Origin: an uncultured Bacteroidales bacterium
Lineage (GTDB): Bacteria > Bacteroidota > Bacteroidia > Bacteroidales > UBA11471
NCBI GenBank assembly: GCA_944325415.1
Contig: CALUZW010000005.1
Coordinates: forward strand, 22,500 to 86,499
Length of the DNA: 64,000 bases
Reading direction: 5' to 3'
Position 1 is the stretch's first letter, and every line of letters starts with the position of its first letter. A model generated the notes under the pieces. That model made no database searches and was not told the origin of the DNA. It worked only from the letters and a program-made list of their open reading frames with translations. Both the position numbers and the translations under genes were made by a program. Shown in pieces: positions 2-53,053 of this stretch.

Positions 2-220
2 AAATTCACCACCGCCTACGAGAGCATCGTACTCTGCGGAAAGGCTTCGGTGGGACTGCCCGAAAGCGAACGCCGCCGGGCTCTCGAAATGATTCTCGAC
101 AAATACTCCCCCGACGACAAAGCGGTGGGGCTGAAATATGCCGAAAAATCGTTTCACCGCGCCGAGATTATCCGCATCGACATCGACACGATGAGCGGCA
201 AAAGCAAAGTGATACGATAG
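2..220 (+). CDS. C-terminal fragment of a pyridoxamine 5'-phosphate oxidase-like (split-barrel flavoprotein) family protein; 5' end outside window
   Basis: Frame is open from the window edge (codon phase from nt 2) to TAG at 218-220. The tail KFTTAYESIVLCGKASVGLPESERRRALEMILDKYSPDDKAVGLKYAEKSFHRAEIIRIDIDTMSGKSKVIR resembles C-termini of PNPOx/Nim-type proteins (recognised from memory only). Confidence 0.45.
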   Translation, partial: KFTTAYESIVLCGKASVGLPESERRRALEMILDKYSPDDKAVGLKYAEKSFHRAEIIRIDIDTMSGKSKVIR

Positions 221-315
221 GGTATTCTCCCTACCCCGTACCGGCCCCGCTCCATACCCGGCAGGAAACCGGTGCTTCAAGAAATTTACGTTATCTTTAC
301 CCGAAATTCCGATTT

Positions 316-1254
316 ATGGCAAAAGTCTCGGTCATCATACCCAACTACCGCCATGCCCCCTACTTGCAGGAGCGCATCGACTCGGTATTGGCCCAAACCT
401 GGCGCGATTTTGAAATCATCATCCTCGACGACTGTTCGCCCGACAATTCCCGGGAAGTCATCGAGCGCTACCGCGGCAACGAGAGAATCACCCACATCGT
501 ATATAACGAGCAGAACAGCGGGTCGACATTCGTGCAATGGCAGAAAGGATTCGACCTCTCGCAAGGTGAATACATATGGATTGCCGAGAGCGACGACTTT
601 GCCGAGCCCGGCTTCCTGGCCGCCTGCGTGGAACAGCTCGACCAGGACCCTGCCTGCACACTGGCCTACACCGAAAGCCGCCTCGTCGACGCCGAAAGCC
701 GCCCGATGAAGAAACGCATGAAGAAAGCCTACTCCCGGGGACGAGAGTGTGACATATGGGACGGGGAGGAGTTTGTCGTCGCCAACATGTTGCGATGCAA
801 CACGATATACAACGCCAGCATGGTCGTCTTCCGCAAGTCGGCACTTCCCGGCGACAGAAGTTACACCGGGTTCCGTCTCAACGGCGACTGGCTGTTCTGG
901 GTAGAGATAGCCCTCCAAGGCAGAGTGGCTCACATCAACAAGGCATTGAACAATTTCAGGCAGCACAACGTAAAGGTTACCCGCACGACCCATCGCGACG
1001 GCACTGCCCTGATAGAGCTGCTGCGGCTCTACGACATACTGTTGGCCCGCATCGCCCTGCCCCGCCGCACCCGCTGGGCTGTCGAAGGGCGCATAGCCCG
1101 GCATGCCCTACGGGCTCTACGACGCATCGACGACCCGGCACGTCAACGCGAAGTGTCGGCATTGTGGCACCAAAAATACAAGCATATACGATGGCGCATC
1201 GTATGGTACAAACTCTACCGCCACCTCTTCCTCCGTCCGCGTTTTATTCACTGA
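316..1254 (+). CDS. family 2 glycosyltransferase (GT-A fold)
   Basis: 312-aa ORF. N-terminus VSVIIPNYRHAPYLQERIDSVLAQTWRDFEIIILDDCSPDNS plus AESDD is the classic GT2 nucleotide-sugar binding/DxD region. Confidence 0.85.
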   Translation: MAKVSVIIPNYRHAPYLQERIDSVLAQTWRDFEIIILDDCSPDNSREVIERYRGNERITHIVYNEQNSGSTFVQWQKGFDLSQGEYIWIAESDDFAEPGFLAACVEQLDQDPACTLAYTESRLVDAESRPMKKRMKKAYSRGRECDIWDGEEFVVANMLRCNTIYNASMVVFRKSALPGDRSYTGFRLNGDWLFWVEIALQGRVAHINKALNNFRQHNVKVTRTTHRDGTALIELLRLYDILLARIALPRRTRWAVEGRIARHALRALRRIDDPARQREVSALWHQKYKHIRWRIVWYKLYRHLFLRPRFIH

Positions 1255-1270
1255 TTTTTTGCGTCATATC

Positions 1271-1315
1271 TATACAGCGAAGGCACCTCATATAGAGAGG
1301 TGCCTTCGCTGTATA
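1271..1315. terminator. bidirectional hairpin between convergent genes
   Basis: Perfect 19-bp stem tatacagcgaaggcacctc / gaggtgccttcgctgtata with a 7-nt loop. It lies between the GT2 stop (1254) and the esterase stop (1323). Confidence 0.7.
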
Positions 1316-1322
1316 AAGAGGT

Positions 1323-2729
1323 TCAGCGGGAGAGGGTTGCCATCAACTCCTCCCACGAACGGAGGGCCCCCTCGGGAAGAGAGGCGGCAGAGCCAAACAT
1401 CTGCAACTGTTCGGGCGTCTCGATGGTTACCCGACTCTCGTCGCAACGTCGGGCATCAAGGCCGAAAACGTCGATAAAGAAATCATAGACCGCCCGCCGT
1501 TTGGTTGGGGTAAACTGGTGCCGCTCCTCGGGGAAATGCACATTGCGCACCGCTTCGGCAGCACCATAATAGCCGTAGATATCTTGCAGGAAGGGATATT
1601 CGAGTGTAGGCACGCTGGCCGTCCAGTCGCCACCGTCGGAGACAACAAGCATGGGTTTGGGGGCAAAGATGGCTGCCAGCTCGGCATTGCAGGTTCCTCC
1701 GCAGGCCCGGGTTGTACCCATACCGCTCTCGCACGGACATCCCCCATCGAAGTGTGATGTAAACGACATGACCGGCGCCGCTGCCGTGTACCGGTTGTCG
1801 AGCAGCGTGAGGAAGACCGAGAGGGTTCCACCTCCCGAGCCGCCACACACCCCGATGCGTGTCGTGTCGATGTCGTTGCGGTCGGAGAGCATACGGTCGA
1901 GAATCTTCATGCCCCACAGGCATTGCAGGGGCTGTGCAAGTGCATGGGTGTGCGACGCACTGCCCAGCTGCATCTCCGACTCACCCCACCCCACAAGGTC
2001 GAACGATACGCACACGGCACCGGCACGAGCCAGTGCCGCATAGCGGTACTGCATATCGGGATTGTAGCGGGCTCCGGCCCAGTGGCCGGCCGGCATCATG
2101 ATGAGCGGGTGGTCTCCCCGTTTCCGCGGTGCATATATCGAGCCGCAGACATAGAGGCCGGGAAGGGTTTCCAATGCAAAATTCTGTACCGTATAACCAT
2201 CGTACTTGCGGACTTTCCCTTCGACATAACGGGGCGATGCCACAGACTTTTCAAGGAGTGGGTCGATGCCCAGGAGTCGCCTGAAATCCTGCAACAGAAG
2301 CGTGCGGCGCTGTTCCCACTCCGCCCGGTTGTGATACTTTCCGTGCAGCCAGGCTATGAGTTTTTCTCCATCGGCCGGGGTACGGCGGTAATACTCATAA
2401 GGTTTTACCTTGTAGGTATTCTTTTTCTGTCGCTCATACCGGTATGCTACGGGCGAAAGCACATTCTGCATCGTCTCCTCGAACGAATAGGGTCGGATGC
2501 GGAAATCGGCATAGGTAAGCATCTGCCCGGCCATAGCCGTTGTATCCAGTTTGAGACGCACGCCGAAGTGTTGCTCTATCTCACGCATCACATCGAGAAG
2601 CGGCCGTTCAAAACGGTTCTCGTAGCAGGGCGTAACCTCCTGCGCCCGCAATGAGGCCACACCGGGCCATAAAATAAAAAGGCAGAGTATGCCCCACCAT
2701 TTGTGTTCTGTTTTTGAGGGATGTCTCAT
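1323..2729 (-). CDS. secreted alpha/beta-hydrolase, probable carbohydrate esterase
   Basis: 468-aa ORF with an N-terminal signal peptide (WWGILCLFILWPGVASLRAQE). Nucleophile elbow GVCGGSGGG (GxSxG) lies in a dienelactone-hydrolase/acetyl-esterase-like C-terminal half. Substrate not determinable from sequence. Confidence 0.65.
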   Translation of the reverse strand: MRHPSKTEHKWWGILCLFILWPGVASLRAQEVTPCYENRFERPLLDVMREIEQHFGVRLKLDTTAMAGQMLTYADFRIRPYSFEETMQNVLSPVAYRYERQKKNTYKVKPYEYYRRTPADGEKLIAWLHGKYHNRAEWEQRRTLLLQDFRRLLGIDPLLEKSVASPRYVEGKVRKYDGYTVQNFALETLPGLYVCGSIYAPRKRGDHPLIMMPAGHWAGARYNPDMQYRYAALARAGAVCVSFDLVGWGESEMQLGSASHTHALAQPLQCLWGMKILDRMLSDRNDIDTTRIGVCGGSGGGTLSVFLTLLDNRYTAAAPVMSFTSHFDGGCPCESGMGTTRACGGTCNAELAAIFAPKPMLVVSDGGDWTASVPTLEYPFLQDIYGYYGAAEAVRNVHFPEERHQFTPTKRRAVYDFFIDVFGLDARRCDESRVTIETPEQLQMFGSAASLPEGALRSWEELMATLSR

Positions 2730-2854
2730 ATTTCAACTATTTAGACCGAGAAACAAAGATAGCGAAAACTCTCTTTTCCGCCCTTCTCTACCGTTCAAAA
2801 AAAGAGCGCCGTCGAAATTTTCATTAAAAGAGAATATCGACAGCAGATAATGCC

Positions 2855-2862
2855 TATCTTTG
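2855..2862 (+). promoter_or_regulatory. candidate Bacteroidetes -7 promoter box (TAnnTTTG)
   Basis: tatctttg, 96 nt upstream of the map start codon. Confidence 0.4.
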
Positions 2863-2957
2863 AGGGAGAAGACAGAGCCCGCGGCCTATCAATGAGCAGA
2901 CAACCACACTCGTCGTTATAGGGCCCGGCATTGCCTTCCGTTTGAAAACCATACATT

Positions 2958-3815
2958 ATGCCAAGGAAAATCATCAACAACTGGAAAATCACCAAAGGGG
3001 CTCCGCTCACCGAACTCGACAAGAAGATTCTCTTCTTCCAGAATCACGGCTGCCTTGTGCCCAGCCGGAGCCTGATAAAGACCCCCGAACAAATCGAAGG
3101 CATACGCCGCAGCGGTGCCGTCAACACCGGCGTACTCGACCTGGTAGCCAAAGAAATCAAAGCCGGAATGTCAACTGCCGAAATCGACCGTCTGGTCTAC
3201 GACTACACGGTAGCACACGGCGCCGTTCCTGCACCGCTCAACTACGAAGGCTTTCCCAAAAGCGTATGCACCTCCATCAACGAAGTGGTGTGCCACGGCA
3301 TACCCAGCGAAGATGAGATTCTGCAAGAGGGCGACATCATCAATGTCGACGTGTCGACCATTCTCGACGGTTACTATTCCGACGCTTCCCGTATGTTCAT
3401 CATCGGGAAAACGACTCCCGAAAAAGAGAAACTGGTGCGCGTCACCAAAGAGTGTCTCGAAATAGGTATGCGGGCGGCCAAACCCTTCGGCTTTGTAGGC
3501 GACATCGGAAACGCCATACAGCGACACGCCGAGAAAAACGGCTTCTCGGTCGTACGCGACCTCTGCGGGCATGGCGTAGGGCTTGCCTTCCACGAAGAGC
3601 CCGAGGTACTCCACTTCGGCCGTAAAGGCACCGGCATGCTGCTGGTTCCGGGTATGGTATTCACCATCGAACCCATGATAAACATGGGCAGCTGGCACGT
3701 CTTCATCGACGAAGACGACGGCTGGACGGTCGTTACCGAAGACGAGAAACCCTCGGCCCAATGGGAACACACCTTCCTGATGACCGAGAACGGCCTTGAA
3801 ATATTGACCTATTAA
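2958..3815 (+). CDS. map: type I methionine aminopeptidase
   Basis: 285-aa ORF with VCHGIP, DIINVDVSTILDGYYSDASRMF, CGHGVG, FTIEPM and EHT metal-ligand blocks typical of MetAP1. Confidence 0.95.
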   Translation: MPRKIINNWKITKGAPLTELDKKILFFQNHGCLVPSRSLIKTPEQIEGIRRSGAVNTGVLDLVAKEIKAGMSTAEIDRLVYDYTVAHGAVPAPLNYEGFPKSVCTSINEVVCHGIPSEDEILQEGDIINVDVSTILDGYYSDASRMFIIGKTTPEKEKLVRVTKECLEIGMRAAKPFGFVGDIGNAIQRHAEKNGFSVVRDLCGHGVGLAFHEEPEVLHFGRKGTGMLLVPGMVFTIEPMINMGSWHVFIDEDDGWTVVTEDEKPSAQWEHTFLMTENGLEILTY

Positions 3816-3906
3816 GACTTGTTTCTCCTTAACTTCCCCCGAATATCCCACACAACGACAAAAACCCAAACGACATATATTCAAACCAAAAAATAAATCT
3901 ACTACG

Positions 3907-5805
3907 ATGAAAAAAACACTTTTAATTTTACCTTCATTCCTATTGTCCTGCATATTCTCGATACAGGCCCAAGATGTATCTACGCTCTCTTGGTCTCAGG
4001 TATGTTCGGGAAAAATGGGTACCGAATGGTATGGAACAGACGAAGCCCAGCGTATTGCCGATGACGTATTGTATGTACAGAAGGTCAACGGTGGCTGGAT
4101 GAAAAATGATGAGTTACACAAACTTACCGCGGAACAGAAACAGACCCTTTACAACAAACGCAACGAACACTCCTGCCTCGACAATGCAGCCACGACACAA
4201 GAGATGCGCTTCCTGGCCAAAGTCTACAAACAGACCGGTATCGAAAAATACAAAACGGCTTTCATGAAAGGTCTTTCCCTTATTCTCACGGCAGAGAAAG
4301 GGTGTGGCGGCTGGTCGCAATATTGGCCGCTCTCGGGCAACGGAAGCTATCAGGACTACATAACCTTCAACGACAACCTGACGACCAACGTCATGAAACT
4401 CCTGCAAGAGATCATCGGCAATAAAGGCGACTTTGAGAACCTCGTCGATGCCGAGACCCGTACACGTTGCGAGGCAGCCTTCCAGAAAGGATTGGAGGTA
4501 ATCATCAAATGCCAGGTCGACGACAATGGTACCAAGGCGGCATGGTGTGCCCAACACGACACAACGACATTCCTGCCTGCCGAAGGCCGGCCACACGAGT
4601 TGCCATCTATCAGCGGCAGCGAATCGGCCAGCCTGCTCTCGTTCCTGATGACCATAGAAAACCCGTCGGAAGAGTTAAAGGCCACCATCACATCGGCCGT
4701 CGAATGGCTCGATGCCCATAAAATCGAAGGTAAAGCCATTGAAGAGTTTACCAACGATAACGGAGAAAATGACCGCCGAGTCATCGACAAGGCCGGCAGT
4801 GCCATCTGGGGCCGTTTTATACAGTTGGGTGGCGCAACAGGAGAGGAATCTTACAATGCCTTCTTTACCAAGCTGAGAAATCGCAACAAGTCCCGCTCTT
4901 ACACGACAGGCGGCAAAACCTATACATATACCGAATATGAGATTGCCACTACCTCGTACCGCCCCGAAATGGCCTACCAACCCATCTATGCCATCTACGA
5001 CGACCAGTATCAGCATCTTTATTACCGATTCCTTTACAACTTCGAAGATACCGAACCCGAAGTTGACAGCAAAGGTCTTGCCATACCCACCTCGCTGAAT
5101 GCCATACGGCGCACAAGCTACCAGTTCTTGGGAAGTTGGTGCATGAATGTCATCAATGTGGAATACCCCGCTTGGTTGCAACGCATCAAGGATCAAGAGG
5201 AGTCGGTAGGTTACACCACCTATGCATTAACCTCGGACACTTACACGGGCACCACGACCAGCGGCACCTCTACGTTTTATAATTTCTCCGACGGAATCAG
5301 CATATCCAACGAGAAAGGAAAGGGTTATGCAACAGGACTCTCTTCCGTCAAAAGCATCAAATATTCGGCCGGAGTAAAATACATCATCAAACTGCCCGAA
5401 GAAATTGCGGTAGATAAAATCAAATTTTACGGATACGACAACTATGCCGAAGCCGAAGCCTACATCAGCGAACTTAACGGCACGACATACAACAGTTCCG
5501 AATATGTATTTCCGGCCAAAGATGCGAACGGCACAGCCCAACTTACGTCGCACACCATAGAATTTGCCGACCAGCCGGCAACGGGAGCCATAGGATTTAC
5601 TATTGCCGGCAAGCAATGCGGACTTGCCATAACTCTCTTCTGCAAAGATTCAACCAGCGGAACCACTGCCATCAAGAGAGAGAATCCATCTACCGAGAGA
5701 GCAATAAAGCAGTTCAAAGAGGGGCAGCTCCTCCTCTACCGCGACGGAACATGGTATAACCTCTCGGGACAAATCGTCGAGAAAACCGCAACGACCGATA
5801 AATAA
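3907..5805 (+). CDS. PelA/Pel-15E-type (PL10) pectate lyase with an extra ~200-aa C-terminal module
   Basis: 632-aa ORF with a signal peptide. VQKVNGGWMKND, GCGGWSQYWP, ITFNDN and AAWCAQHD blocks match the PL10 alpha/alpha-toroid family as I recall it. Residues ~435-632 lie outside the catalytic domain. Confidence 0.75.
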   Translation: MKKTLLILPSFLLSCIFSIQAQDVSTLSWSQVCSGKMGTEWYGTDEAQRIADDVLYVQKVNGGWMKNDELHKLTAEQKQTLYNKRNEHSCLDNAATTQEMRFLAKVYKQTGIEKYKTAFMKGLSLILTAEKGCGGWSQYWPLSGNGSYQDYITFNDNLTTNVMKLLQEIIGNKGDFENLVDAETRTRCEAAFQKGLEVIIKCQVDDNGTKAAWCAQHDTTTFLPAEGRPHELPSISGSESASLLSFLMTIENPSEELKATITSAVEWLDAHKIEGKAIEEFTNDNGENDRRVIDKAGSAIWGRFIQLGGATGEESYNAFFTKLRNRNKSRSYTTGGKTYTYTEYEIATTSYRPEMAYQPIYAIYDDQYQHLYYRFLYNFEDTEPEVDSKGLAIPTSLNAIRRTSYQFLGSWCMNVINVEYPAWLQRIKDQEESVGYTTYALTSDTYTGTTTSGTSTFYNFSDGISISNEKGKGYATGLSSVKSIKYSAGVKYIIKLPEEIAVDKIKFYGYDNYAEAEAYISELNGTTYNSSEYVFPAKDANGTAQLTSHTIEFADQPATGAIGFTIAGKQCGLAITLFCKDSTSGTTAIKRENPSTERAIKQFKEGQLLLYRDGTWYNLSGQIVEKTATTDK

Positions 5806-28893: not shown

Positions 28894-28979
<86 letters not shown>

Positions 28980-41389: not shown

Positions 41390-41415
41390 GGCGATTTTAT
41401 TTTATAATAAAAAAA

Positions 41416-41764
41416 CAGCAGGACGATAAGCCGGGTTCTGTACTTTCCCGAGAGAAAGTGTCTGTCATTTATCTAGCCTTTGCGTTGCCGCAAAGATCGA
41501 GCGGTTTACCCCCCGGCATGGGACGAGCAGCCCTCATAACGCCGGTGTACATAACCTTGCAACCCATAAGACGTACGGCTCTCTGTGTCGCCACAAAGAC
41601 CGGTAAGCTCTTACCTCACCTTTTCACCCTTACTGCCGAAGCAGCGGTTATTTTCTGTTACGCTACTCTGCCCTCGCGGACAGCTTCCCGTTAAGAAATA
41701 TGGTGCTCTGTGTTGCCCGGACTTTCCTCTCACGTTGCCGCGAGCGACAGACTGTCCTGCTGCT
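41416..41764 (-). ncRNA. rnpB: RNase P RNA (bacterial type A)
   Basis: The minus strand contains GAGGAAAGUCCGGGC (complement of gcccggactttcctc at ~41714-41728), GGUAAGAGCUUACCGG, AGAUAAAUGACAG and ACAGAACCCGGCUUAU. P1 pairs GCAGCAGGAC (5') with GUCCUGCUG (3'). The 5' end falls 7 nt after a -7 box. Confidence 0.9.
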
Positions 41765-43709: not shown

Positions 43710-44570
43710 ATGAGACAATTAAAAATCACAAAATCAATCACCAACAGGGAGAGCGCATCTCTTGACAAATACTTGCAGGAAATAGGTCGTGAGGACTTGA
43801 TTTCGGTAGAAGAAGAGGTAGAGCTCGCCCAGCGCATCAAGAAAGGCGACCGTGCCGCTTTGGAAAAGCTCACACGCGCCAATCTGCGTTTTGTCGTCTC
43901 GGTAGCCAAACAGTACCAAAACCAGGGGCTCAGCCTGCCCGACCTTATCAACGAAGGCAATTTGGGACTGATAAAAGCCGCCGAGAAGTTCGATGAAACC
44001 CGCGGATTCAAATTTATTTCTTATGCCGTATGGTGGATTCGTCAGTCCATTCTTCAAGCATTGGCCGAGCAGTCGCGTATCGTTCGCTTGCCTTTGAACC
44101 AAGTCGGTTCGCTCAACAAAATCAGCAAAGCATTCTCCAAATTTGAACAAGAGAACGAACGCCGCCCCTCGCCCGAAGAATTGGCCAAAGAGCTGGACAT
44201 TCCCGTCGACAAAATCTCCGACACGATGAAAGTATCGGGCCGGCACATCTCGGTCGACGCGCCTTTTGTCGAAGGCGAAGACAACAGCCTGCTCGACGTC
44301 CTGGTCAATGACGACTCCCCCATCGCCGACCGCTCGCTCATAAACGAGTCGCTCGCCAAAGAAATAGACCGTGCGCTGGCCACTCTCACCGAACGCGAAA
44401 GCGACATCATCAAGATGTTCTTCGGCATAGGCTGTCAGGAAATGACGCTGGAAGAAATCGGCGACAAATTCGGTTTGACCCGTGAACGCGTACGTCAAAT
44501 CAAGGAAAAAGCCATTCGCCGCCTGCGTCAAAGCTCGCGCAGCAAGTTGCTCAAAACCTATTTGGGATAA
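43710..44570 (+). CDS. rpoD: primary RNA polymerase sigma factor (Bacteroidetes short SigA/RpoD)
   Basis: 286-aa ORF with region 2 ([17 protein letters not shown]...[18 protein letters not shown]...[13 protein letters not shown]) and region 4.2 ([28 protein letters not shown]). Confidence 0.95.
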
Positions 44571-44587
44571 CATTTTGATTGTTCATA

Positions 44588-44620
44588 ACGAAGGGCCGCT
44601 CCTCGGGAGCGGCCCTTCGT
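44588..44620. terminator. bidirectional hairpin between convergent genes
   Basis: Perfect 15-bp stem acgaagggccgctcc / ggagcggcccttcgt with a 3-nt loop. Confidence 0.75.
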
Positions 44621-44643: not shown

Positions 44644-46320
44644 CTACAATACCACCTTGCGGACGGTTCCGTTCACATTGACGATATACATTCCACCGAA
44701 GGGAAGGGATATTTCCATGCGTTTCCCCGTAGAGACACTCTCCTGCACGACGACCCCGTCGATCCGGCACACGACAATCGGTTCTCCCGGTGCCGACCCG
44801 TCGACCACAATACGCCCGCCGCTGGCATATACCTGTACGGCGGCACTCTCGACAGCCTCTACTCCCGTCGTCGACGGCAATACCGTTACCACACAAGTAT
44901 CGCACAAGTTGCTGCCGTCGGTAGTCCTTGCCGTAATAATGGCCGTTCCCGGTCCTTCGCCAAAGAAGCCATATCTCCTGTTCGACCAATGAGTCATCGT
45001 TACCCACGCCACCGACTCATCACTCGATGTCCACTCGATGTTCCGCACATACGAGGCATACTGCGGCAGGAGCTCACATGTATCCGCAAAAGAGCTACCA
45101 CACTCTATGGTTACAGAATCCTGTCCCAAAGAGAAGTATGTTGCCTGCTGGGCGATGTATATCACAGTGCATGTCGCCGACAGGTTGCTGCCATCGGTGG
45201 TACTCAGCCTGATTACAGCCGTATCGGAACCGATAGGGCCCTCGGGGTCGAATGCATATGCCCAACCACTGGCAGATATTTGACCTGTAGTAGAACCCGA
45301 TTCAAAAAAACTGATATCGAATTTTCCTTGATTTTCTACCTCATACGACAACTGAGGATAAGAGGCATTCTCTGGTGTTATCGTCCAATTGGCATAATAC
45401 TTATTCGGCATATCTCGAATGATAATAAGGGTATCGGGGTCTAGGGTGATCGATGTGATCGGTATCTCCACATAATCGGGATATACCGAATCGCGGATTG
45501 AAACAAAATTTCCCCACTCATCGGCCTGCCGATAAGCGTCGACCGAACCCTCGGGCACATATAGAATACCATAAGTGTTAGATTTTCCACTGAAAAGCAC
45601 TCCGTCGGGACTCCCCCGTAGATAAGCCGGTGGCTCTACGGCCAATGAATGAATTTCCATCAAATCGGAGCAAGAAGCAAAAGCATTATCGCCGATTGTT
45701 TTTACATTCTTCCCCAAAGTCAACTTTCTCAATCCACAGTTCTCAAAAGCATTATCGCCTATGCTCTCTACCCCGTCGGGTATGACGACCGAAAAAAGCC
45801 GTTCACAGTACCAAAAAGCATCGTAACCTATAGATGTAGTCTTCTCGGAAATCTTCACCGATTCCAAAGCGTAACACGAGCTAAACGTATGTTCATCGAT
45901 AAAAAACAAAGAAGAGAGATCGACCGACTTCAAAAGATCACAACTATTGAACGCATCGGCACCTATCTTCTTGACATTCTCGAGATTTATCGATACCAAC
46001 GAATCGCAACCCTGAAAAACTCTTTTCCCTATCGTCTGCAAACTCGGAGGCAATGTTACCGTTCGTATCGAGGTATTCCACGCGAAAACATCATCGCCAA
46101 TTTCTACCACCCGATAAGATTCTCCATATGCTTCGATATACTCGGGTATCTGCAAGTCTCGATCTTCTACCGGTCGGGTGCTTGTTTCGAGAACAGCGGT
46201 TCTTTCTCCGAAATCATCATAGAGAAGGTAATACCACCCATCGTCGATATACTCTTGCCCCCTAACAACTCCCAATGTGGCGAATAAGAGCATCGCCGCC
46301 AAAATCACACGTTTTCCCAT
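44644..46320 (-). CDS. BspA-type LRR + Ig-like (Big_2-like) surface protein with T9SS C-terminal sorting domain
   Basis: 558-aa ORF with a signal peptide. ~8 LRR units (..IG..AF..C..L.S..), two Ig-like segments (ITSITLDPDTL..., VTIECGSSF...), and a CTD AAVQVYASGGRIVVDGSAPGEPIVVCRIDGVVV...MYIVNVNGTVRKVVL. Confidence 0.85.
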   Translation of the reverse strand: MGKRVILAAMLLFATLGVVRGQEYIDDGWYYLLYDDFGERTAVLETSTRPVEDRDLQIPEYIEAYGESYRVVEIGDDVFAWNTSIRTVTLPPSLQTIGKRVFQGCDSLVSINLENVKKIGADAFNSCDLLKSVDLSSLFFIDEHTFSSCYALESVKISEKTTSIGYDAFWYCERLFSVVIPDGVESIGDNAFENCGLRKLTLGKNVKTIGDNAFASCSDLMEIHSLAVEPPAYLRGSPDGVLFSGKSNTYGILYVPEGSVDAYRQADEWGNFVSIRDSVYPDYVEIPITSITLDPDTLIIIRDMPNKYYANWTITPENASYPQLSYEVENQGKFDISFFESGSTTGQISASGWAYAFDPEGPIGSDTAVIRLSTTDGSNLSATCTVIYIAQQATYFSLGQDSVTIECGSSFADTCELLPQYASYVRNIEWTSSDESVAWVTMTHWSNRRYGFFGEGPGTAIITARTTDGSNLCDTCVVTVLPSTTGVEAVESAAVQVYASGGRIVVDGSAPGEPIVVCRIDGVVVQESVSTGKRMEISLPFGGMYIVNVNGTVRKVVL

Positions 46321-46559
46321 ACATCATATTTTTAGGTGTTCCTCATGAATGCCGGAAAGTTATAAAACAAAACCGAAAAATCCCAACTTTTTACGCCACA
46401 ATTACAAGAGAGAATCTGACTTCGGGACGGGAATATATACAAAACGATTTTTAGGGCGATTCTTTATGATTTAATATTATGCAATCTTCCACAGATAATA
46501 ATTCGTAAAAGCAAACTCAAAAAATATTTCATTCTATTTGCAAAATCAAAAATAATCGC

Positions 46560-46567
46560 TACATTTG
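46560..46567 (+). promoter_or_regulatory. candidate -7 promoter box for the leu operon leader
   Basis: tacatttg, 31 nt upstream of the leader-peptide ATG (46598). Confidence 0.5.
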
Positions 46568-46597
46568 CAGCCGAAATACAAAAATCGACTGCTACTC

Positions 46598-46675
46598 ATG
46601 CGCGACTTCCGACTTGACAACCTACGAATTATTATTCTACCGAAAACTTCGATGGACGGTGAGCCGGTGCGCTAA
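46598..46675 (+). CDS. candidate leu-operon leader peptide (25 codons)
   Basis: MRDFRLDNLRIIILPKTSMDGEPVR*. The core is CTA CGA ATT ATT ATT CTA (L R I I I L). The CTA Leu codon is used twice here but never in the ~960 codons of leuA+leuC. Confidence 0.5.
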   Translation: MRDFRLDNLRIIILPKTSMDGEPVR

Positions 46676-46698
46676 AATGTAGAAATGAACCCATATAG

Positions 46699-46739
46699 AA
46701 ACCTTTCTCACACGTCCTTGTGCAGAAAGGTTTTTTTTT
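46699..46739 (+). terminator. leader terminator (attenuator) upstream of leuA
   Basis: aaacctttct / agaaaggttt 10-bp stem (plus inner caca/tgtg pairs) followed by nine T. It ends 28 nt before the leuA ATG. Confidence 0.7.
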
Positions 46740-46766
46740 GAGAACAAACGAAAACAACATATTACC

Positions 46767-48263
46767 ATGTCTGAGAAATTATACATTTTCGATACAACCC
46801 TGCGCGACGGCGAACAAGTGCCGGGTTGTCAGCTCAACACCGTTGAGAAAATAGAGGTGGCCAGGGCGCTCGAAGCGCTGGGCGTAGACATTATCGAGGC
46901 AGGATTTCCTGTATCGAGCCCGGGCGACTTCAACTCGGTCGTAACCATCTCCAAGGCGGTAACGTGGCCCACCATCTGCGCCTTGACCCGCGCCAATGAA
47001 AACGACATAAAGGTGGCTGCCGAGGCTTTGCAGTATGCCAAGCACAAACGGATACACACAGGTATCGGCACCTCGGACTACCACATCAAATACAAATTCA
47101 ACTCCACCCGAGAGGAGATTATCGAACGGGCCGTCGCTGCTGTAAAATATGCCAAGAAATATGTCGAAGACGTAGAGTTCTACGCCGAAGACGCAGGCCG
47201 CACCGACAATGAATACCTGGCCCGTGTTGTCGAGGCTGTCATCAAAGCCGGTGCTACGGTGGTGAACATTCCCGACACGACGGGTTACTGTCTGCCCGAG
47301 GAATTCGGCCGCAAGATACGGTTCCTCAAAGAGAATGTCAAAGGCATCGACAAGGCCATCATCGCCACCCACTGCCACAACGACTTGGGCATGGCCACGG
47401 CCAACACCATATCGGGTATTCTCAACGGGGCACGTCAGGCCGAGGTAACCATCAACGGTATCGGCGAACGCGCCGGCAACACCTCGCTCGAAGAGGTGGC
47501 CATGATATTCAAAAGCCACAAGGAGCTCGACATCGAAACCAACATCAACACGCAAAAGATTTACAGCACCAGCCGACTGGTATCGAGCCTCATGAGTATG
47601 CCGGTACAACCCAACAAGGCCATCGTAGGGCGCAACGCCTTTGCCCACTCGTCGGGCATACATCAGGACGGGGTGCTCAAAAACCGCGAGAACTACGAAA
47701 TCATCGACCCGCGCGACGTAGGCATCGACGAAAACTCGATTGTACTCACCGCCCGCAGCGGCCGCGCCGCACTGAAACACCGTCTGCACATTTTGGGCGT
47801 GGAACTCGACAAGAAGGGGCTCGACAAGGCGTATGAAGATTTCCTGAAACTGGCCGACCGCAAAAAAGACATCAACGACGACGATCTGCTCATGCTCGTG
47901 GGTAAGGCGCGCTCGGAAAATGCCCGCATCACGCTCGACTATCTGCAAGTAACATCGGGAGTCGGCGTACGCTCGGTGGCCAGCGTCGGTCTGCTCATTG
48001 CCGGCGAGCGCTTCGAGGCGGCAGCCACGGGCAACGGTCCTGTCGACGCTGCCATCAAGGCCGTAAAACAGATTATTCACCGACAGATGACCATTCAGGA
48101 GTTCCTTATCCAGGCCATCACCAAAGGCAGCGACGACGTGGGCAAGGTACACATGGCCGTAGCTCACGACGGCGTTCACTACAACGGATTCGCCGCCAAT
48201 ACCGATATCGTGGCAGCATCGGTCGAGGCCTTCATCGACGCCATCAACAAATTTGTACATTAA
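46767..48263 (+). CDS. leuA: 2-isopropylmalate synthase
   Basis: 498-aa ORF with [24 protein letters not shown], the HxH(D) metal site and a C-terminal LeuA dimerisation/regulatory domain. Confidence 0.93.
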
Positions 48264-48293
48264 TATTTGTTTCTCTTTCAAACAATATAGGTT

Positions 48294-49688
48294 ATGAATA
48301 CACTTTTCGACAAAATATGGGACGCTCACGTCGTACAGAAAATCGAAGACGGACCTACCCAACTCTACATCGACCGGCTCTACTGCCATGAAGTAACCAG
48401 CCCCCAGGCTTTCGACGGACTGCGTGCACGCGGACTGAAATGTTTCCGTCCGGGACAGATATTCTGCATGCCCGACCACAACACCCCCACCCATGACCAG
48501 GACAAGCCCATCGAAGACCCCGTGTCGCGCAAACAGGTCGACACGCTGGCCCGTAACGCCGAGGAGTTCGGGCTCACCCACTTCGGCATGCTCAATCCCC
48601 GAAACGGTATCATTCATGTCGTAGGGCCCGAACGCGGACTCACCCTGCCCGGCATGACCATCGTGTGCGGCGACTCCCACACCTCGACCCACGGAGCGAT
48701 GGGCGCCATCGCATTCGGCATCGGCACCAGCGAAGTCGAAATGGTACTGGCCACACAGTGTATCCTGCAATCGCGCCCCAAGACCATGCGCATCACCATA
48801 GACGGCACCCTGGGTAAAGGCGTCACGGCCAAGGACATGGCCCTGTATCTCATGTCGAAAATCACCACCAGCGGTGCCACCGGGTACTTTATCGAATATG
48901 CCGGCGAAGCCGTGCGCAGCCTCTCGATGGAAGGCCGCCTCACCCTGTGCAACCTGAGTATCGAAATGGGTGCCCGCGGCGGCATGATAGCCCCCGACGA
49001 GACCACCTTTGCCTACATCAAGGGCCGCGAACATGCACCCAAGGGCGAAGACTGGGACAAGGCGGTGGCCTACTGGAAAACGCTCAAAAGCGACGACGAT
49101 GCCACTTTCGACAAGGAACTGCGCTACGATGCCGCCGACATAGAACCGATGATTACCTACGGAACCAACCCCGGCATGGGTATCGCCATCACCGCCCACA
49201 TACCGACCACCGACGGCATGAGCGAGGTAGAAAAGGGCTCTTTCATGAAATCGTTGCAATACATGGGCTTCGAGCCGGGAGAGTCGCTGCTGGGAAAAGC
49301 GGTAGACTATGTATTCCTCGGCGCCTGCACCAACGGCCGCATCGAAGACTTCCGGGCCTTTGCCTCGCTGGTCAAAGGCCGTAAAAAGGCCGACCACATC
49401 GTAGCCTGGCTGGTACCGGGCTCCTGGATGGTCGACGCACAGATACGCGAAGAGGGTATCGACAAGATACTGCACGAGGCCGGATTCGAGATACGCCAAC
49501 CGGGTTGCTCGGCCTGTCTGGCCATGAACGACGACAAGGTGCCGGCCGGGAAATATGCCGTATCGACCAGCAACCGCAACTTCGAAGGCCGTCAGGGCCC
49601 CGGCTCCCGCACCCTGCTGGCCAGCCCGCTGGTAGCCGCTGCTGCCGCCGTAACCGGTGTAATCACCGACCCCAGAACGCTGATGTAA
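48294..49688 (+). CDS. leuC: 3-isopropylmalate dehydratase large subunit
   Basis: 464-aa aconitase-family ORF with VCGDSHT, GACTNGR and NRNFEGRQG Fe-S ligand blocks. Confidence 0.95.
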
Positions 49689-49707
49689 ACGACAAATGCA
49701 AACGATT

Positions 49708-50301
49708 ATGAAACAGAAATTCAACATACTGACAAGCACCTGCATACCTCTCCCCCTCGAAAACGTAGATACCGACCAAATCATTCCGGCCCGTTTTCTC
49801 AAAGCAACCACCCGCGAAGGATTCGGAGAGAACCTGTTCCGCGACTGGCGCTACAACCCCGACGGCTCTGTCAATAAAGATTTCGTACTCAACGACCCCA
49901 CATACAGCGGCGAAATACTGGTCGCCGGGAAGAATTTCGGTTCGGGCTCAAGCCGTGAACACGCCGCCTGGGCCATTGCCGACTACGGCTTCCGCGTAGT
50001 GGTATCGAGTTTCTTTGCCGACATACACAAGAACAACGAACTCAACAACTTCGTACTCCCTGTCGTAGTGAGCGAGTCGTTCCTGAAAGAGCTGTTCGAC
50101 ACCATCTTTGCCAACCCCAAAGCCGAGGTCGAGGTGAATCTGCCCGAGCAGACCATCACCAACAAAGCCACAGGACGGAGCGAACATTTTGAAATCAACG
50201 CCTACAAGAAACACTGCCTCATGAACGGCCTCGACGACATCGACTACCTGCTGAGCCAGAAAGCCGAAACCGAGTCGTGGGAACAGAACCATAACCGTTG
50301 A
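49708..50301 (+). CDS. leuD: 3-isopropylmalate dehydratase small subunit
   Basis: [32 protein letters not shown]..., [16 protein letters not shown] 49708 is preferred over 49696. Confidence 0.93.
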
Positions 50302-50305
50302 GGCC

Positions 50306-51823
50306 ATGCGCATAGAGATATTAGATACCACCCTGCGCGACGGTGAGCAGACATCGGGTGTCTCGTTTGCCCCGCAGGAGAAACTGAGCATCGCCCGCCT
50401 GCTGCTCTCGGAGTTGCACGTCGACCGCATAGAGATAGCCTCGGCCCGTGTCTCCGAAGGGGAGTTTCAGTCGGTGAGCCAGGTATGTGCCTGGGCCGAG
50501 AAGCAGGGCTTTCTCGACCGGATAGAGATTCTCGGATTCATCGACCGGGGCATCTCCACCCGCTGGATAAAAAAAGCCGGCGGAAGCATCATCAACCTCC
50601 TGTGCAAAGGCTCGCTGCGCCACTGCCGCGAACAGTTGAAAAAAAGCCCCGAAGAGCATATAGCCGACATCCGTGCCGAAATATCCCTCGCCCGTGAGAA
50701 CGGCCTGCGGGTAAACATCTACCTCGAAGACTGGTCAAACGGCATGATACACTCGCCCGAGTATGTCTACCAACTGATGGATGCCCTCCACGGCGAAGAA
50801 ATAGAACACTTCATGTTGCCCGATACGCTGGGCATACTCAATCCCTATCAGTGTTTCGAATTCTGTGCCGCCATGAAAGAGCGCTATCCCGACTGCCGGT
50901 TCGACTTTCACGGGCACAACGACTACGACCTGGCCATTGCCAATGTCTACTCGGCCGTAAAGGCCGGCATACAGGGCATACACTGTACCATCAACGGACT
51001 TGGCGAACGGGCCGGCAATGCTCCGCTTTCGAGCGTACTGGCCGTCATACACGACCAGCTCAAATGCCAGACAGGCATCGACGAAAAGAAAATAAACCAG
51101 GTGAGCCGCGTGGTTGAGTCGTACTCGGGCGTGCGCATTCCGGCCAACAAGCCGGTCATCGGTGAGTATGTCTTCACCCAATGTGCCGGCGTACACGCCG
51201 ACGGCGACAGCAAAAGCAACCTCTACTACAACGACCTGCTGCCCGAACGCTTCGGCCGCACCCGCGAATATGCCCTGGGCAAAACGTCGGGCAAAGCCAA
51301 CATACGGAAAAACCTCGAAGCACTCGGCATAGAACTCGACGAGGAGTCGATGCGCAAGGTAACCGACCGCATCATCGCCCTCGGCGACAAAAAAGAGCAG
51401 GTTACCCAGGAAGACCTGCCCTACATCATCTCCGACGTGCTGAAACACGACACCAAGGACCAGAAGATAAGGCTGCTCAATTACTCGCTGGCCCTGGCGC
51501 AGGGGTTGCACCCGGTAGCCGTGGTGAAGATAGAGATACACGGTAAGCAGTATGAACAGACGGCTACGGGCGACGGACAGTACGACGCCTTTGTGAAAGC
51601 CGTGCGCACCATCTACAAGCAACAGCTGGGCCGGGAATTTCCGATGCTCGCCAACTACACGGTCGACATTCCCCCCGGTGGCCGCACCGACGCTTTTGTA
51701 CAGACCGTCATTACCTGGAACTACCACGGCCATACCTTCAAAACCCGGGGCCTCGATGCCGACCAGACCGAAGCCGCCATACAGGCCACGGTGAAAATGC
51801 TGAATCAAATCGAAAATCTATAA
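50306..51823 (+). CDS. cimA: (R)-citramalate synthase-like IPMS/HCS family enzyme
   Basis: 505-aa ORF with [23 protein letters not shown] and a C-terminal LeuA-dimer-type domain. It is a second, divergent synthase inside the leu operon, and the citramalate assignment rests on that arrangement. Confidence 0.7.
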
Positions 51824-51843
51824 AACAACAAAAACTCTCGTAT

Positions 51844-52917
51844 ATGAAACTGAAAATCGCCGTACTGCCGGGCGACGGCATAGGTCCCGAAATCGTGGGA
51901 CAAGCCCTGCAAGTAACCGAAGCCGTGTGCAAACGTTTCGGACATGAACTGACTCATCAGCACGCATGGGTGGGTGCCTGCGCCATCGACCGCTGCGGAA
52001 ACCCCTATCCCGAAGAGACCCATCGGTTGTGCATGGAGTCTGATGCCGTACTGTTCGGAGCCATCGGCGACCCCAAATACGACAACAACCCCACCGCCAA
52101 GGTTCGTCCCGAACAGGGTCTGTTGGGAATGCGCAAGCAACTGGGTCTCTATGCCAACATACGTCCCGTAACCACCTTTGCCTCGCTGCTGCACAAGTCG
52201 CCGCTGCGCCGCGACATCGTCGAAGGCACCGACCTGATGTGTATTCGCGAACTTACCGGAGGTCTCTACTTCGGCCGCCCGCAAGGACGCAGCGAAGACG
52301 GCAACGTAGCCTATGACACCTGCGTATACAGCCGCGAAGAGGTAGAGCGTATCGTGCGTCTGGCCTACAAATATGCTCGCCAGCGCCGTCAAAAAGTAAC
52401 CGTGGTCGACAAGGCCAACGTACTCTGCACCTCGCGCTTGTGGAGAGAAGTGGCTCAGGAAATCGCCAAAGAAAACGCCGACATCACCACCGAATATATG
52501 TTTGTCGACAATGCAGCCATGCAGCTCGTACAGTTCCCGAGCCGCTTCGATGTCATCGTTACCGAAAACATGTTTGGCGACATACTCACCGACGAAGCCT
52601 CGGTCATCACCGGCTCGCTGGGTATGCTCCCCTCGGCCTCGGTAGGACTGCACACCTCGGTCTTCGAGCCCATACACGGCTCCTACCCGCAGGCTGCCGG
52701 AAAAGACATCGCCAACCCGGTTGCCACCATTCTCTCGGCCGCACTCATGTTTGAATATGCTTTCGGTCTCATGGAAGAGGGTGCTGCCATACGGCGCGCC
52801 GTTGCCGCTTCGCTCGAAGCCGGCGTCGTTACCGAAGACATCTGCGGCGAAGGGAAAGCCTATAAATGTTCCGAAGTGGGCCGATGGATTACCGATTACA
52901 TCGCCCAGGGAAAATAA
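51844..52917 (+). CDS. leuB: 3-isopropylmalate dehydrogenase
   Basis: 357-aa ORF with [23 protein letters not shown] and [10 protein letters not shown] signatures. Confidence 0.95.
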
Positions 52918-52936
52918 CTCTCTCTATGCAATGAGC

Positions 52937-52971
52937 AAAAGCCGTACACACGCAAGGTGTGTACGGCTTTT
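52937..52971. terminator. bidirectional hairpin between convergent genes
   Basis: Perfect 15-bp stem aaaagccgtacacac / gtgtgtacggctttt. Confidence 0.8.
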
Positions 52972-53053
52972 GTCATTTTGTAACCGTCCGCAGGACCGGC
53001 ATCTGCCCAGTCGCGTAGGCGGGAGCAGATGGCTCGGACCCGAAAGACAACAG

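Follow-up and report, generated by a model that had tools for sequence, protein, structure and literature searches.

We analyzed a stretch of 64,000 nucleotides from an uncultured Bacteroidales bacterium (contig CALUZW010000005.1 of GenBank assembly GCA_944325415.1; this whole stretch is hereafter called the window) and focused on the region directly 5′ of leuA, the first gene of a leuA-leuC-leuD-cimA-leuB operon. An initial annotation, made from the sequence alone, had proposed a leader-peptide attenuator with leucine and isoleucine codons in this region. The region contains a promoter-like element, a short leader open reading frame (ORF), and two mutually exclusive RNA pairings, one of which is a terminator in front of leuA. 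This anatomy and its conservation in relatives make it very probable that the element acts on the operon as a ribosome-mediated (leader-peptide) transcription attenuator, in a family conserved across Bacteroidia. Most likely, the attenuator raises operon expression when leucine or isoleucine is short. The features of the element are as follows.

46537–46540, + strand: −33-like TTTG, 19 nt 5′ of the −7 box
46560–46567, + strand: −7 box TAcaTTTG, in a Bacteroidetes-type two-part promoter pattern
46598–46675, + strand: leader ORF MRDFRLDNLRIIILPKTSMDGEPVR, 25 codons plus TAA (46673–46675)
46613–46615, + strand: putative regulatory codon Leu6 (CTT)
46622–46639, + strand: leader core CTA CGA ATT ATT ATT CTA, read from the sequence
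46622–46624, + strand: putative regulatory codon Leu9 (CTA)
46625–46627, + strand: putative regulatory codon Arg10 (CGA)
46628–46636, + strand: putative regulatory codons Ile11–13 (three ATT)
46637–46639, + strand: putative regulatory codon Leu14 (CTA)
46654–46668, + strand: antiterminator 5′ arm (region 2) GGACGGTGAGCCGGT, within the last leader codons
46699–46733, + strand: terminator hairpin, −15.0 kcal/mol, 14 pairs, 6-nt loop, one bulged C
46699–46718, + strand: terminator 5′ arm and loop (region 3), common to terminator and antiterminator
46719–46733, + strand: terminator 3′ arm
46731–46739, + strand: run of nine T
46767–52917, + strand: putatively regulated operon leuA-leuC-leuD-cimA-leuB, assigned by NCBIfam matches

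The leader ORF with its CTA CGA ATT ATT ATT CTA core and the −7 box at 46560 were present exactly as first annotated, and folding confirmed the strong terminator with nine T residues at 46699–46739. Two spacings required correction by one nucleotide: the −7 box and the leader ATG are separated by 30 nt rather than 31 nt, and the leuA ATG (46767) lies 27 nt rather than 28 nt past the end of the T run. The hairpin at 46699–46733 was missed by a simple terminator scan, probably because the scan pattern disallows the bulged C. Both strands of the window together hold 472 short ATG-initiated ORFs. In five of them, a stretch of six codons contains at least five Leu or Ile residues, and of these five only the leader precedes a strong hairpin with a T run.

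We compared the terminator with the alternative pairing suggested in the initial annotation, in which a segment at about 46654–46663 serves as an antiterminator. GGACGGTGAG (46654–46663) pairs with 46707–46717, and GGT (46666–46668) pairs with ACC (46701–46703), resulting in an antiterminator of 13 pairs (−19.2 kcal/mol) that consumes the terminator 5′ arm completely and thereby excludes the terminator. Shuffled upstream sequences paired at −9.1 ± 2.3 kcal/mol, and 1 of 1000 shuffles was as good as the antiterminator. A stalled ribosome was modelled by masking 30 nt; the cut transcript and the forced antiterminator were folded after full-transcript folds with such masks had failed to switch. 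RNA cut at 46720, before the terminator 3′ arm, folded into the antiterminator without a ribosome, and the antiterminator also formed with a ribosome mask at Ile11–13 or Leu14; a mask over the stop codon prevented it from forming. Folding with and without the masked leader thus agreed with the mutual exclusivity of the two structures that the attenuator proposal implies. The first base of Leu14 is located 17 nt from region 2, and the stop codon 5 nt past region 2. In the minimum-energy fold, 46600–46672 form a long imperfect hairpin.

Homologues were sought in leuA loci, 80 from genomes and 80, with 5.5 kb flanks, from metagenomes. Approximately 45 of the 80 genome loci had a Leu/Ile-rich mini-ORF and then a terminator upstream of leuA, with MNQMFIHILLCGIIILLSKVSGSECCA as an example from Bacteroides, MNNNFLHILLLGIIILLQNK from Paludibacter, MKSLNLLNGLIIIRLHGAGGSDLGAYIS from Prevotella, and MTSFNNISLLGLIIGILLIWMHD from Prolixibacteraceae; the comparison with relatives that the initial annotation had named as a check therefore revealed homologous leader ORFs. 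The leaders of the window and of Bacteroides (MNQMFIHILLCGIIILLSKVSGSECCA) correspond at equal spacing, with IIIL, PKTS, and MDGE in the former and IIILL, SKVS, and GSE in the latter. The family consensus was GGAAGTGAG ... AAAGCCTTTCTCACTTCC..GTG.GAAAGGCTTTTTTT, in which AAAGCCTTTCTCACTTCC represents region 3. Model R1, a covariance model derived from 40 relatives with the window left out, matched the window at 46646–46738 over the full model length (35.9 bits, E 4.8e-4), with no second significant match within the 64 kb; among the 80 metagenome loci, 55 had a match directly 5′ of leuA. The leader stop codon was located at or past the first antiterminator base in the relatives, except for one doubtful ORF (L042). 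Occlusion by the ribosome requires a stop codon in this position. Four independent assemblies with identical LeuA showed 100% identity in the leader region, so the region is not an assembly artefact; for the same reason, a strain-level comparison is uninformative. The genome and metagenome collections contained no relatives closer than 84–85% LeuA identity. Leu-rich leader ORFs (e.g., MRFFAAFILSSLLLLALRPAGGCVLSA) with GC-rich terminators and matching antiterminators were also observed in four loci of Lentisphaerota/Oligosphaeraceae (L062, L063, L065, and L066), whose LeuA is 73–74% identical to that of the window, and could reflect operon transfer or convergence.

Next, we examined covariation in the two helices using pair counts from a sequence-only MAFFT alignment (A1). 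In the family terminator, 90.3% of cells were paired and 10 of 13 pairs had changed on both sides, values reached by no shuffle; RNAalifold chose the same terminator helix. The family antiterminator was paired in 83.5% of cells versus 42–60% in slid registers, and showed compensatory changes in 7 of 12 pairs. Covarying stems, which the initial annotation had named as a mark of a genuine leader, are thus found in both helices of the relatives' leuA upstream regions. Furthermore, antiterminator–terminator pairing was stronger within members (mean −17.0 kcal/mol) than with the sequences of other members (−12.6 kcal/mol; 0 of 10,000 permutations), and the antiterminator arm of the window paired best with its own terminator, above any of 46 others. 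This cognate preference derives from lineage-specific matched changes, such as GGACGGTGAG/CTCACACGTCC in the window relative to the consensus GGAAGTGAG/CTCACTTCC.

The operon and the neighboring features in the window are as follows.

43710–44570, + strand: RpoD-like sigma-factor gene
44588–44620, + strand: the sigma-factor gene's own terminator, 15 pairs, GC-rich, very strong, directly after the gene
44644–46320, opposite to leuA: divergent gene upstream of the leader
46767–48263, + strand: leuA, NCBIfam score above the curated cut-off
48294–49688, + strand: leuC, NCBIfam score above the curated cut-off
49696–50301, + strand: leuD, NCBIfam score above the curated cut-off
50306–51823, + strand: cimA-like citramalate synthase gene, top NCBIfam model (R)-citramalate synthase CimA
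51844–52917, + strand: leuB, NCBIfam score above the curated cut-off
52935–52973, + strand: operon-end terminator, 17-pair hairpin, then a T-rich tail

The cimA-like protein scored 644 bits against the CimA model, under the model cut-off of 950 bits. To relate the leader amino acids to operon content, we scored the gene content of the metagenome loci with tblastn and counted Ile codons in leaders of operons with and without cimA. The 38 distinct leaders of cimA-containing operons had two to seven Ile codons (mean 4.7), and the four leaders whose loci lack cimA (L106, L138, L143, and L153) had zero or one Ile and four to seven Leu codons, representing complete separation (Mann–Whitney p = 2e-4, kinship ignored). 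For each of these cimA-less loci, the nearest LeuA neighbor carries cimA (79–93% identity), and the four loci are separate lineages, as they are only 73–84% identical to each other. The L160 metagenome contig (L160:1–119 and 202–5486) encodes an ilvD-ilvB-ilvN-ilvC-leuA-leuC-leuD-cimA-leuB operon with the family attenuator 5′ of ilvD (38 bits); the visible part of its leader (...SLLLVVILILVDVGWGR, the 5′ end lying beyond the fetched locus) contains four Val besides Leu and Ile. No leader was found 5′ of ilvD in L154. The suggestion in the initial annotation that mixed Leu and Ile control would match the citramalate synthase of the operon is supported by this tracking of cimA by Ile codons, with few exceptions having been sampled. 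In a separate count of loci with leuA-leuC-leuD-leuB, a leader was undetected within 330 nt 5′ of leuA in 5 of 7 loci without cimA (L084, L088, L122, L144, and L149) versus 15 of 56 with cimA, these counts being rough because the script missed some leaders later found by model R1. In L088, ilvB-ilvN-ilvC ends approximately 2.7 kb 5′ of leuA.

The family leaders consist of 19% Leu and 18% Ile overall. Comparison of codon usage between 44 leaders and their adjacent leuA genes revealed a bias toward particular codons, as follows.

CTA share of Leu codons: leaders 31%, leuA 3%
ATT share of Ile codons: leaders 79%, leuA 50%
CGA share of Arg codons: leaders 33%, leuA 8%

Regarding the window itself, the initial annotation had stated that CTA is absent from leuA and leuC, and the count in both genes was indeed zero. 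CTA was also absent from leuD and leuB and occurred once in cimA, accounting for 1 of 156 Leu codons operon-wide. The near absence of CTA from the operon therefore stands, but it is not peculiar to the operon, since CTA makes up approximately 2% of Leu codons across the long ORFs of the window and its rarity is common to them. ATT was the least used Ile codon in the window ORFs (23%); the operon still contains 25 ATT codons. CGA is frequently found next to the Ile run, for example in IIIRLR of Prevotella-type leaders and L-R-III of the window, where it also occurs at 46607–46609 besides 46625–46627; examples elsewhere include L020, L028, L035–L037, and L060. CGA may be a slow-decoding codon that aids stalling or may be inherited within one lineage.

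The promoter pattern was likewise conserved. Of 37 relatives, 29 have a TAnnTT[TC]G that starts at most 80 nt 5′ of the leader ATG, compared with a shuffled mean of 2.9, and in 27 of these it is located 26–48 nt 5′ of the ATG, a range that includes the 38 nt from the start of the window −7 box to its leader ATG. Most relatives have TTTG or TTG 14–30 nt 5′ of their own −7 box. In the window, transcription would start near 46572–46575, to judge from the position of the box; a sigma-70 promoter scan is irrelevant to Bacteroidetes promoters. Three in-frame Leu codons, CTG CTA CTC, lie at 46589–46597, immediately 5′ of the leader ATG. No stop codon, ATG, GTG, or TTG occurs between the predicted transcription start and these codons, and they were rejected as part of the leader because the predicted transcript offers no usable start codon ahead of the ATG. 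The three codons may be a remnant or have arisen by coincidence, and would be relevant only with a non-canonical start codon.

The anatomy of the element and the comparative evidence point to a mechanism based on leader translation, ribosome stalling, and premature termination in response to leucine and isoleucine. Transcription would begin a few bases past the TAcaTTTG box, and a ribosome would translate the 25-codon leader. With well-charged Leu-tRNA and Ile-tRNA, the ribosome is expected to pass codons 19–25, which contain the antiterminator 5′ arm, and to reach the stop codon at 46673, where it would cover 46654–46668 and allow the terminator at 46699–46733 to form with the nine U residues, so that transcription would stop 27 nt short of leuA. 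Under a shortage of Leu or Ile, the ribosome would stall on the rare codons CTA, ATT-ATT-ATT, or CTA (46622–46639), and its leading edge would halt before 46654, leaving region 2 free. Region 2 could then pair with 46701–46717 once these bases are transcribed, capturing the terminator 5′ arm and permitting RNA polymerase to continue into leuA.

Several observations weigh against this mechanism or reduce the force of its evidence. The terminator fold of the full transcript beats the antiterminator by 2.6–5 kcal/mol, even with a stalled-ribosome mask; because the full-length RNA favors the terminator at equilibrium, the switch would have to be kinetic, as in classical attenuators. The region 1:2 pairing, which would act as an anti-antiterminator or pause structure, was not above chance in the window relative to shuffles (z = +0.87) and reached significance in just 9 of the 41 relatives, and since this pairing is not general, synchronization of ribosome and polymerase is not visible. 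The leader of the window contains three Leu and three Ile versus family means of 4.4 and 4.7, and is a somewhat degenerate member of the family. It has no Shine–Dalgarno sequence, as expected in Bacteroidetes, and initiation at the ATG at 46598 is assumed. Finally, the association with cimA is built on just four cimA-less leaders, without correction for phylogeny.

These data were also weighed against other explanations of the element. A leader-peptide attenuator could sense leucine only, with the Ile codons serving as hydrophobic filler or RNA structure, given that the first gene and four of the five operon genes encode leucine enzymes. The ATT run pairs with region 2 in Bacteroides loci L029, L032, and L040 (about −17 kcal/mol) and could therefore be kept for structure in some relatives, whereas the window has no significant 1:2 pairing to account for its ATT run. 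Moreover, Ile codons are as frequent as Leu codons in the leaders of cimA operons, ATT is favored over other Ile codons more than in leuA, and Ile is nearly gone (0–1) in four independent cimA-less lineages that retain the homologous terminator. We consider sensing of leucine only to be unlikely. It is less likely still that the switch is real and set by an RNA-binding protein, uncharged tRNA, or small molecule, with an incidental ORF. The window and the relatives tested match no T-box, riboswitch, or other Rfam family, and the spacer is short and poorly conserved, leaving little room for a ligand pocket. Although GGAAGTGAG in region 2 and CTCACTTCC in region 3 are conserved beyond the needs of pairing, and although translation of the leader is deduced from its sequence, dozens of lineages keep an ATG-initiated ORF at the same place with respect to the antiterminator. 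The Leu/Ile content, rare codons, and stop position of this ORF are conserved while the remaining peptide varies freely, and the encoded amino acids track the gene content of the operon.

The hairpin might also be an unregulated partial terminator, an RNA-stability element, or an insulator, with the ORF arising by chance or encoding a hydrophobic micropeptide. Hairpins with T runs are common between genes, and the leader of the window is short with few regulatory codons. Nevertheless, the hairpin at 46699–46733 ends no preceding + strand gene, as the gene at 44644–46320 is divergent and the sigma-factor gene further upstream has its own terminator. The alternative pairing is conserved with covariation, the combination of a Leu/Ile run with a terminator occurs in 1 of the 472 short ORFs, and the peptide is unconserved outside the Leu/Ile core, with a C-terminus dictated by RNA pairing. 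An unregulated hairpin therefore appears highly improbable, and control by leader-peptide attenuation in response to leucine and isoleucine accounts best for the conserved features.

We searched known RNA families and leader systems for counterparts of the element. The scan of Rfam with Infernal that the initial annotation had proposed matched no known family in the window: a permissive scan of 46300–46900 against Rfam 15 (E up to 10) returned only a chance match to RAGATH-32 (E 0.58), and Leu_leader (RF00512), Thr_leader (RF00506), and Phe_leader (RF01859) gave no match to the window at E up to 10. No match was obtained in a gathering-score scan of 10 canonical relatives, and Bacteroid-trp (RF01692), T-box (RF00230), and riboswitch families were not matched by the window or the relatives tested. 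In a permissive scan, the Bacteroides member L029 gave nothing beyond matches to leader families far under threshold: it scored 19.1 bits with Leu_leader, 17.2 bits with Thr_leader, and 22.9 bits with Phe_leader versus gathering scores of 50–55, which is architectural resemblance and not membership.

The enterobacterial leu leader (leuL; RF00512) resembles the element in its short ORF with Leu codons before leuA, its intrinsic terminator, its competing antiterminator, and its use of the rare CUA as a regulatory codon. A preference for rare regulatory codons is known for this leader, and rare CUA is reported to be important in the Salmonella leu leader (Carter, Bartkus and Calvo, PNAS 1986). 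Homology between leuL and the family is undetectable (RF00512 on L029, 19.1 bits versus a gathering score of 50), and the window element differs from leuL in having mixed Ile/Leu codons, no Shine–Dalgarno sequence, a Bacteroidetes-type promoter, an antiterminator arm inside or right after the last ORF codons, and no clear 1:2 hairpin. In Escherichia coli, the leader of ilvGMEDA (ilvL) contains Leu, Val, and Ile codons and the thr leader (thrL) contains Thr and Ile codons. As in these multivalent attenuators, whose leaders mix codons for several pathway products of the operon, Leu and Ile fit leuABCD plus cimA in the present family, and Leu, Ile, and Val fit the ilv-leu fusion of L160. The ilvL and thrL leaders belong to other operons in another phylum and show no sequence relationship to the family (Thr_leader on L029, 17.2 bits versus 55).

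Bacteroid-trp occurs in the same phylum as the window element, with a different amino acid and operon. We take this motif to be a Trp-codon leader ORF with a terminator; if it truly is a Trp-codon leader, Bacteroidetes would already have an accepted case of such control. The searchable literature yielded no account of a leuA leader in Bacteroidia; the most likely earlier source, the comparative study of Vitreschak et al. from 2004 (FEMS Microbiol Lett 234:357), the abstract of which reportedly mentions attenuators ‘in some cases’ in Bacteroidetes/Chlorobi, may list one. Accordingly, the tentative remark in the initial annotation, which knew of no described leader of this type for Bacteroidales, held for Rfam and the literature searched, with the qualification that the 2004 study may cover the family. 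Among reports on related systems, Weinberg et al. (2010) list Bacteroid-trp (RF01692) as a cis-regulatory, non-riboswitch motif (PMC2864571), and another paper describes a Leu-rich attenuator peptide for the ilv-leu operon of Staphylococcus aureus (PMC5794164). The Lactococcus Leu/Phe leader is RF01743. The S. aureus and Lactococcus leaders are similar to the window element in exerting leader-peptide control over branched-chain amino acid genes outside Proteobacteria, and differ from it in belonging to Firmicutes, in being unrelated in sequence, and in giving no match in the Rfam scans. The RegPrecise survey contains just two RNA regulogs for Bacteroidaceae (PMC3766115). A transcriptome paper on Bacteroides thetaiotaomicron refers in general terms to small ORFs ‘reminiscent of leader peptides’, and its Theta-Base tables include a predicted terminator adjoining BT_1862, which is probably the terminator of the B. 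thetaiotaomicron homologue (PMC7366714). Signs of leader-peptide attenuation 5′ of amino-acid operons have also been reported in a Flavobacterium transcriptome study (PMC9723704).

The mechanism itself is that of a textbook leader-peptide attenuator, and the family is large and not in Rfam. We tentatively propose, at somewhat less than an even chance, that it represents a formally undescribed, Bacteroidia-wide leuA leader family, absent from Rfam 15 and the RegPrecise Bacteroidaceae RNA regulons, in which the codon set follows the operon: Leu only without cimA, Leu and Ile with cimA, and Leu, Ile, and Val when ilvDBNC is fused. If true, the regulation of the operon would itself be evidence that gut Bacteroidales use their second LeuA-like gene for isoleucine synthesis, and would tie the cimA-like paralogue to the supply of isoleucine. 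This reading would also argue that ribosomes load on nascent RNA fast enough for translation-coupled attenuation in a phylum whose translation starts without Shine–Dalgarno pairing, and the family suggests close timing of transcription and translation in Bacteroidia. A well-supported amino-acid attenuator would be added to a phylum with few catalogued cis-regulatory RNAs. For annotation, such an attenuator would account for the strong ‘terminator’ immediately before leuA; the covariance model is ready for use, and members such as the B. thetaiotaomicron homologue offer a simple test system.

Several further features were observed in the window. An antisense ORF of 1010 codons (46779–49811, − strand) spans leuA and leuC in codon register. 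It exists only because in-frame CTA and TCA are absent from leuA and leuC and TTA is nearly so, and it is an artefact of codon bias rather than a gene. A bacterial RNase P RNA of class A is encoded at 41411–41763 (− strand; 247 bits), and a tRNA-Ser with anticodon UGA at 28894–28979 (− strand).

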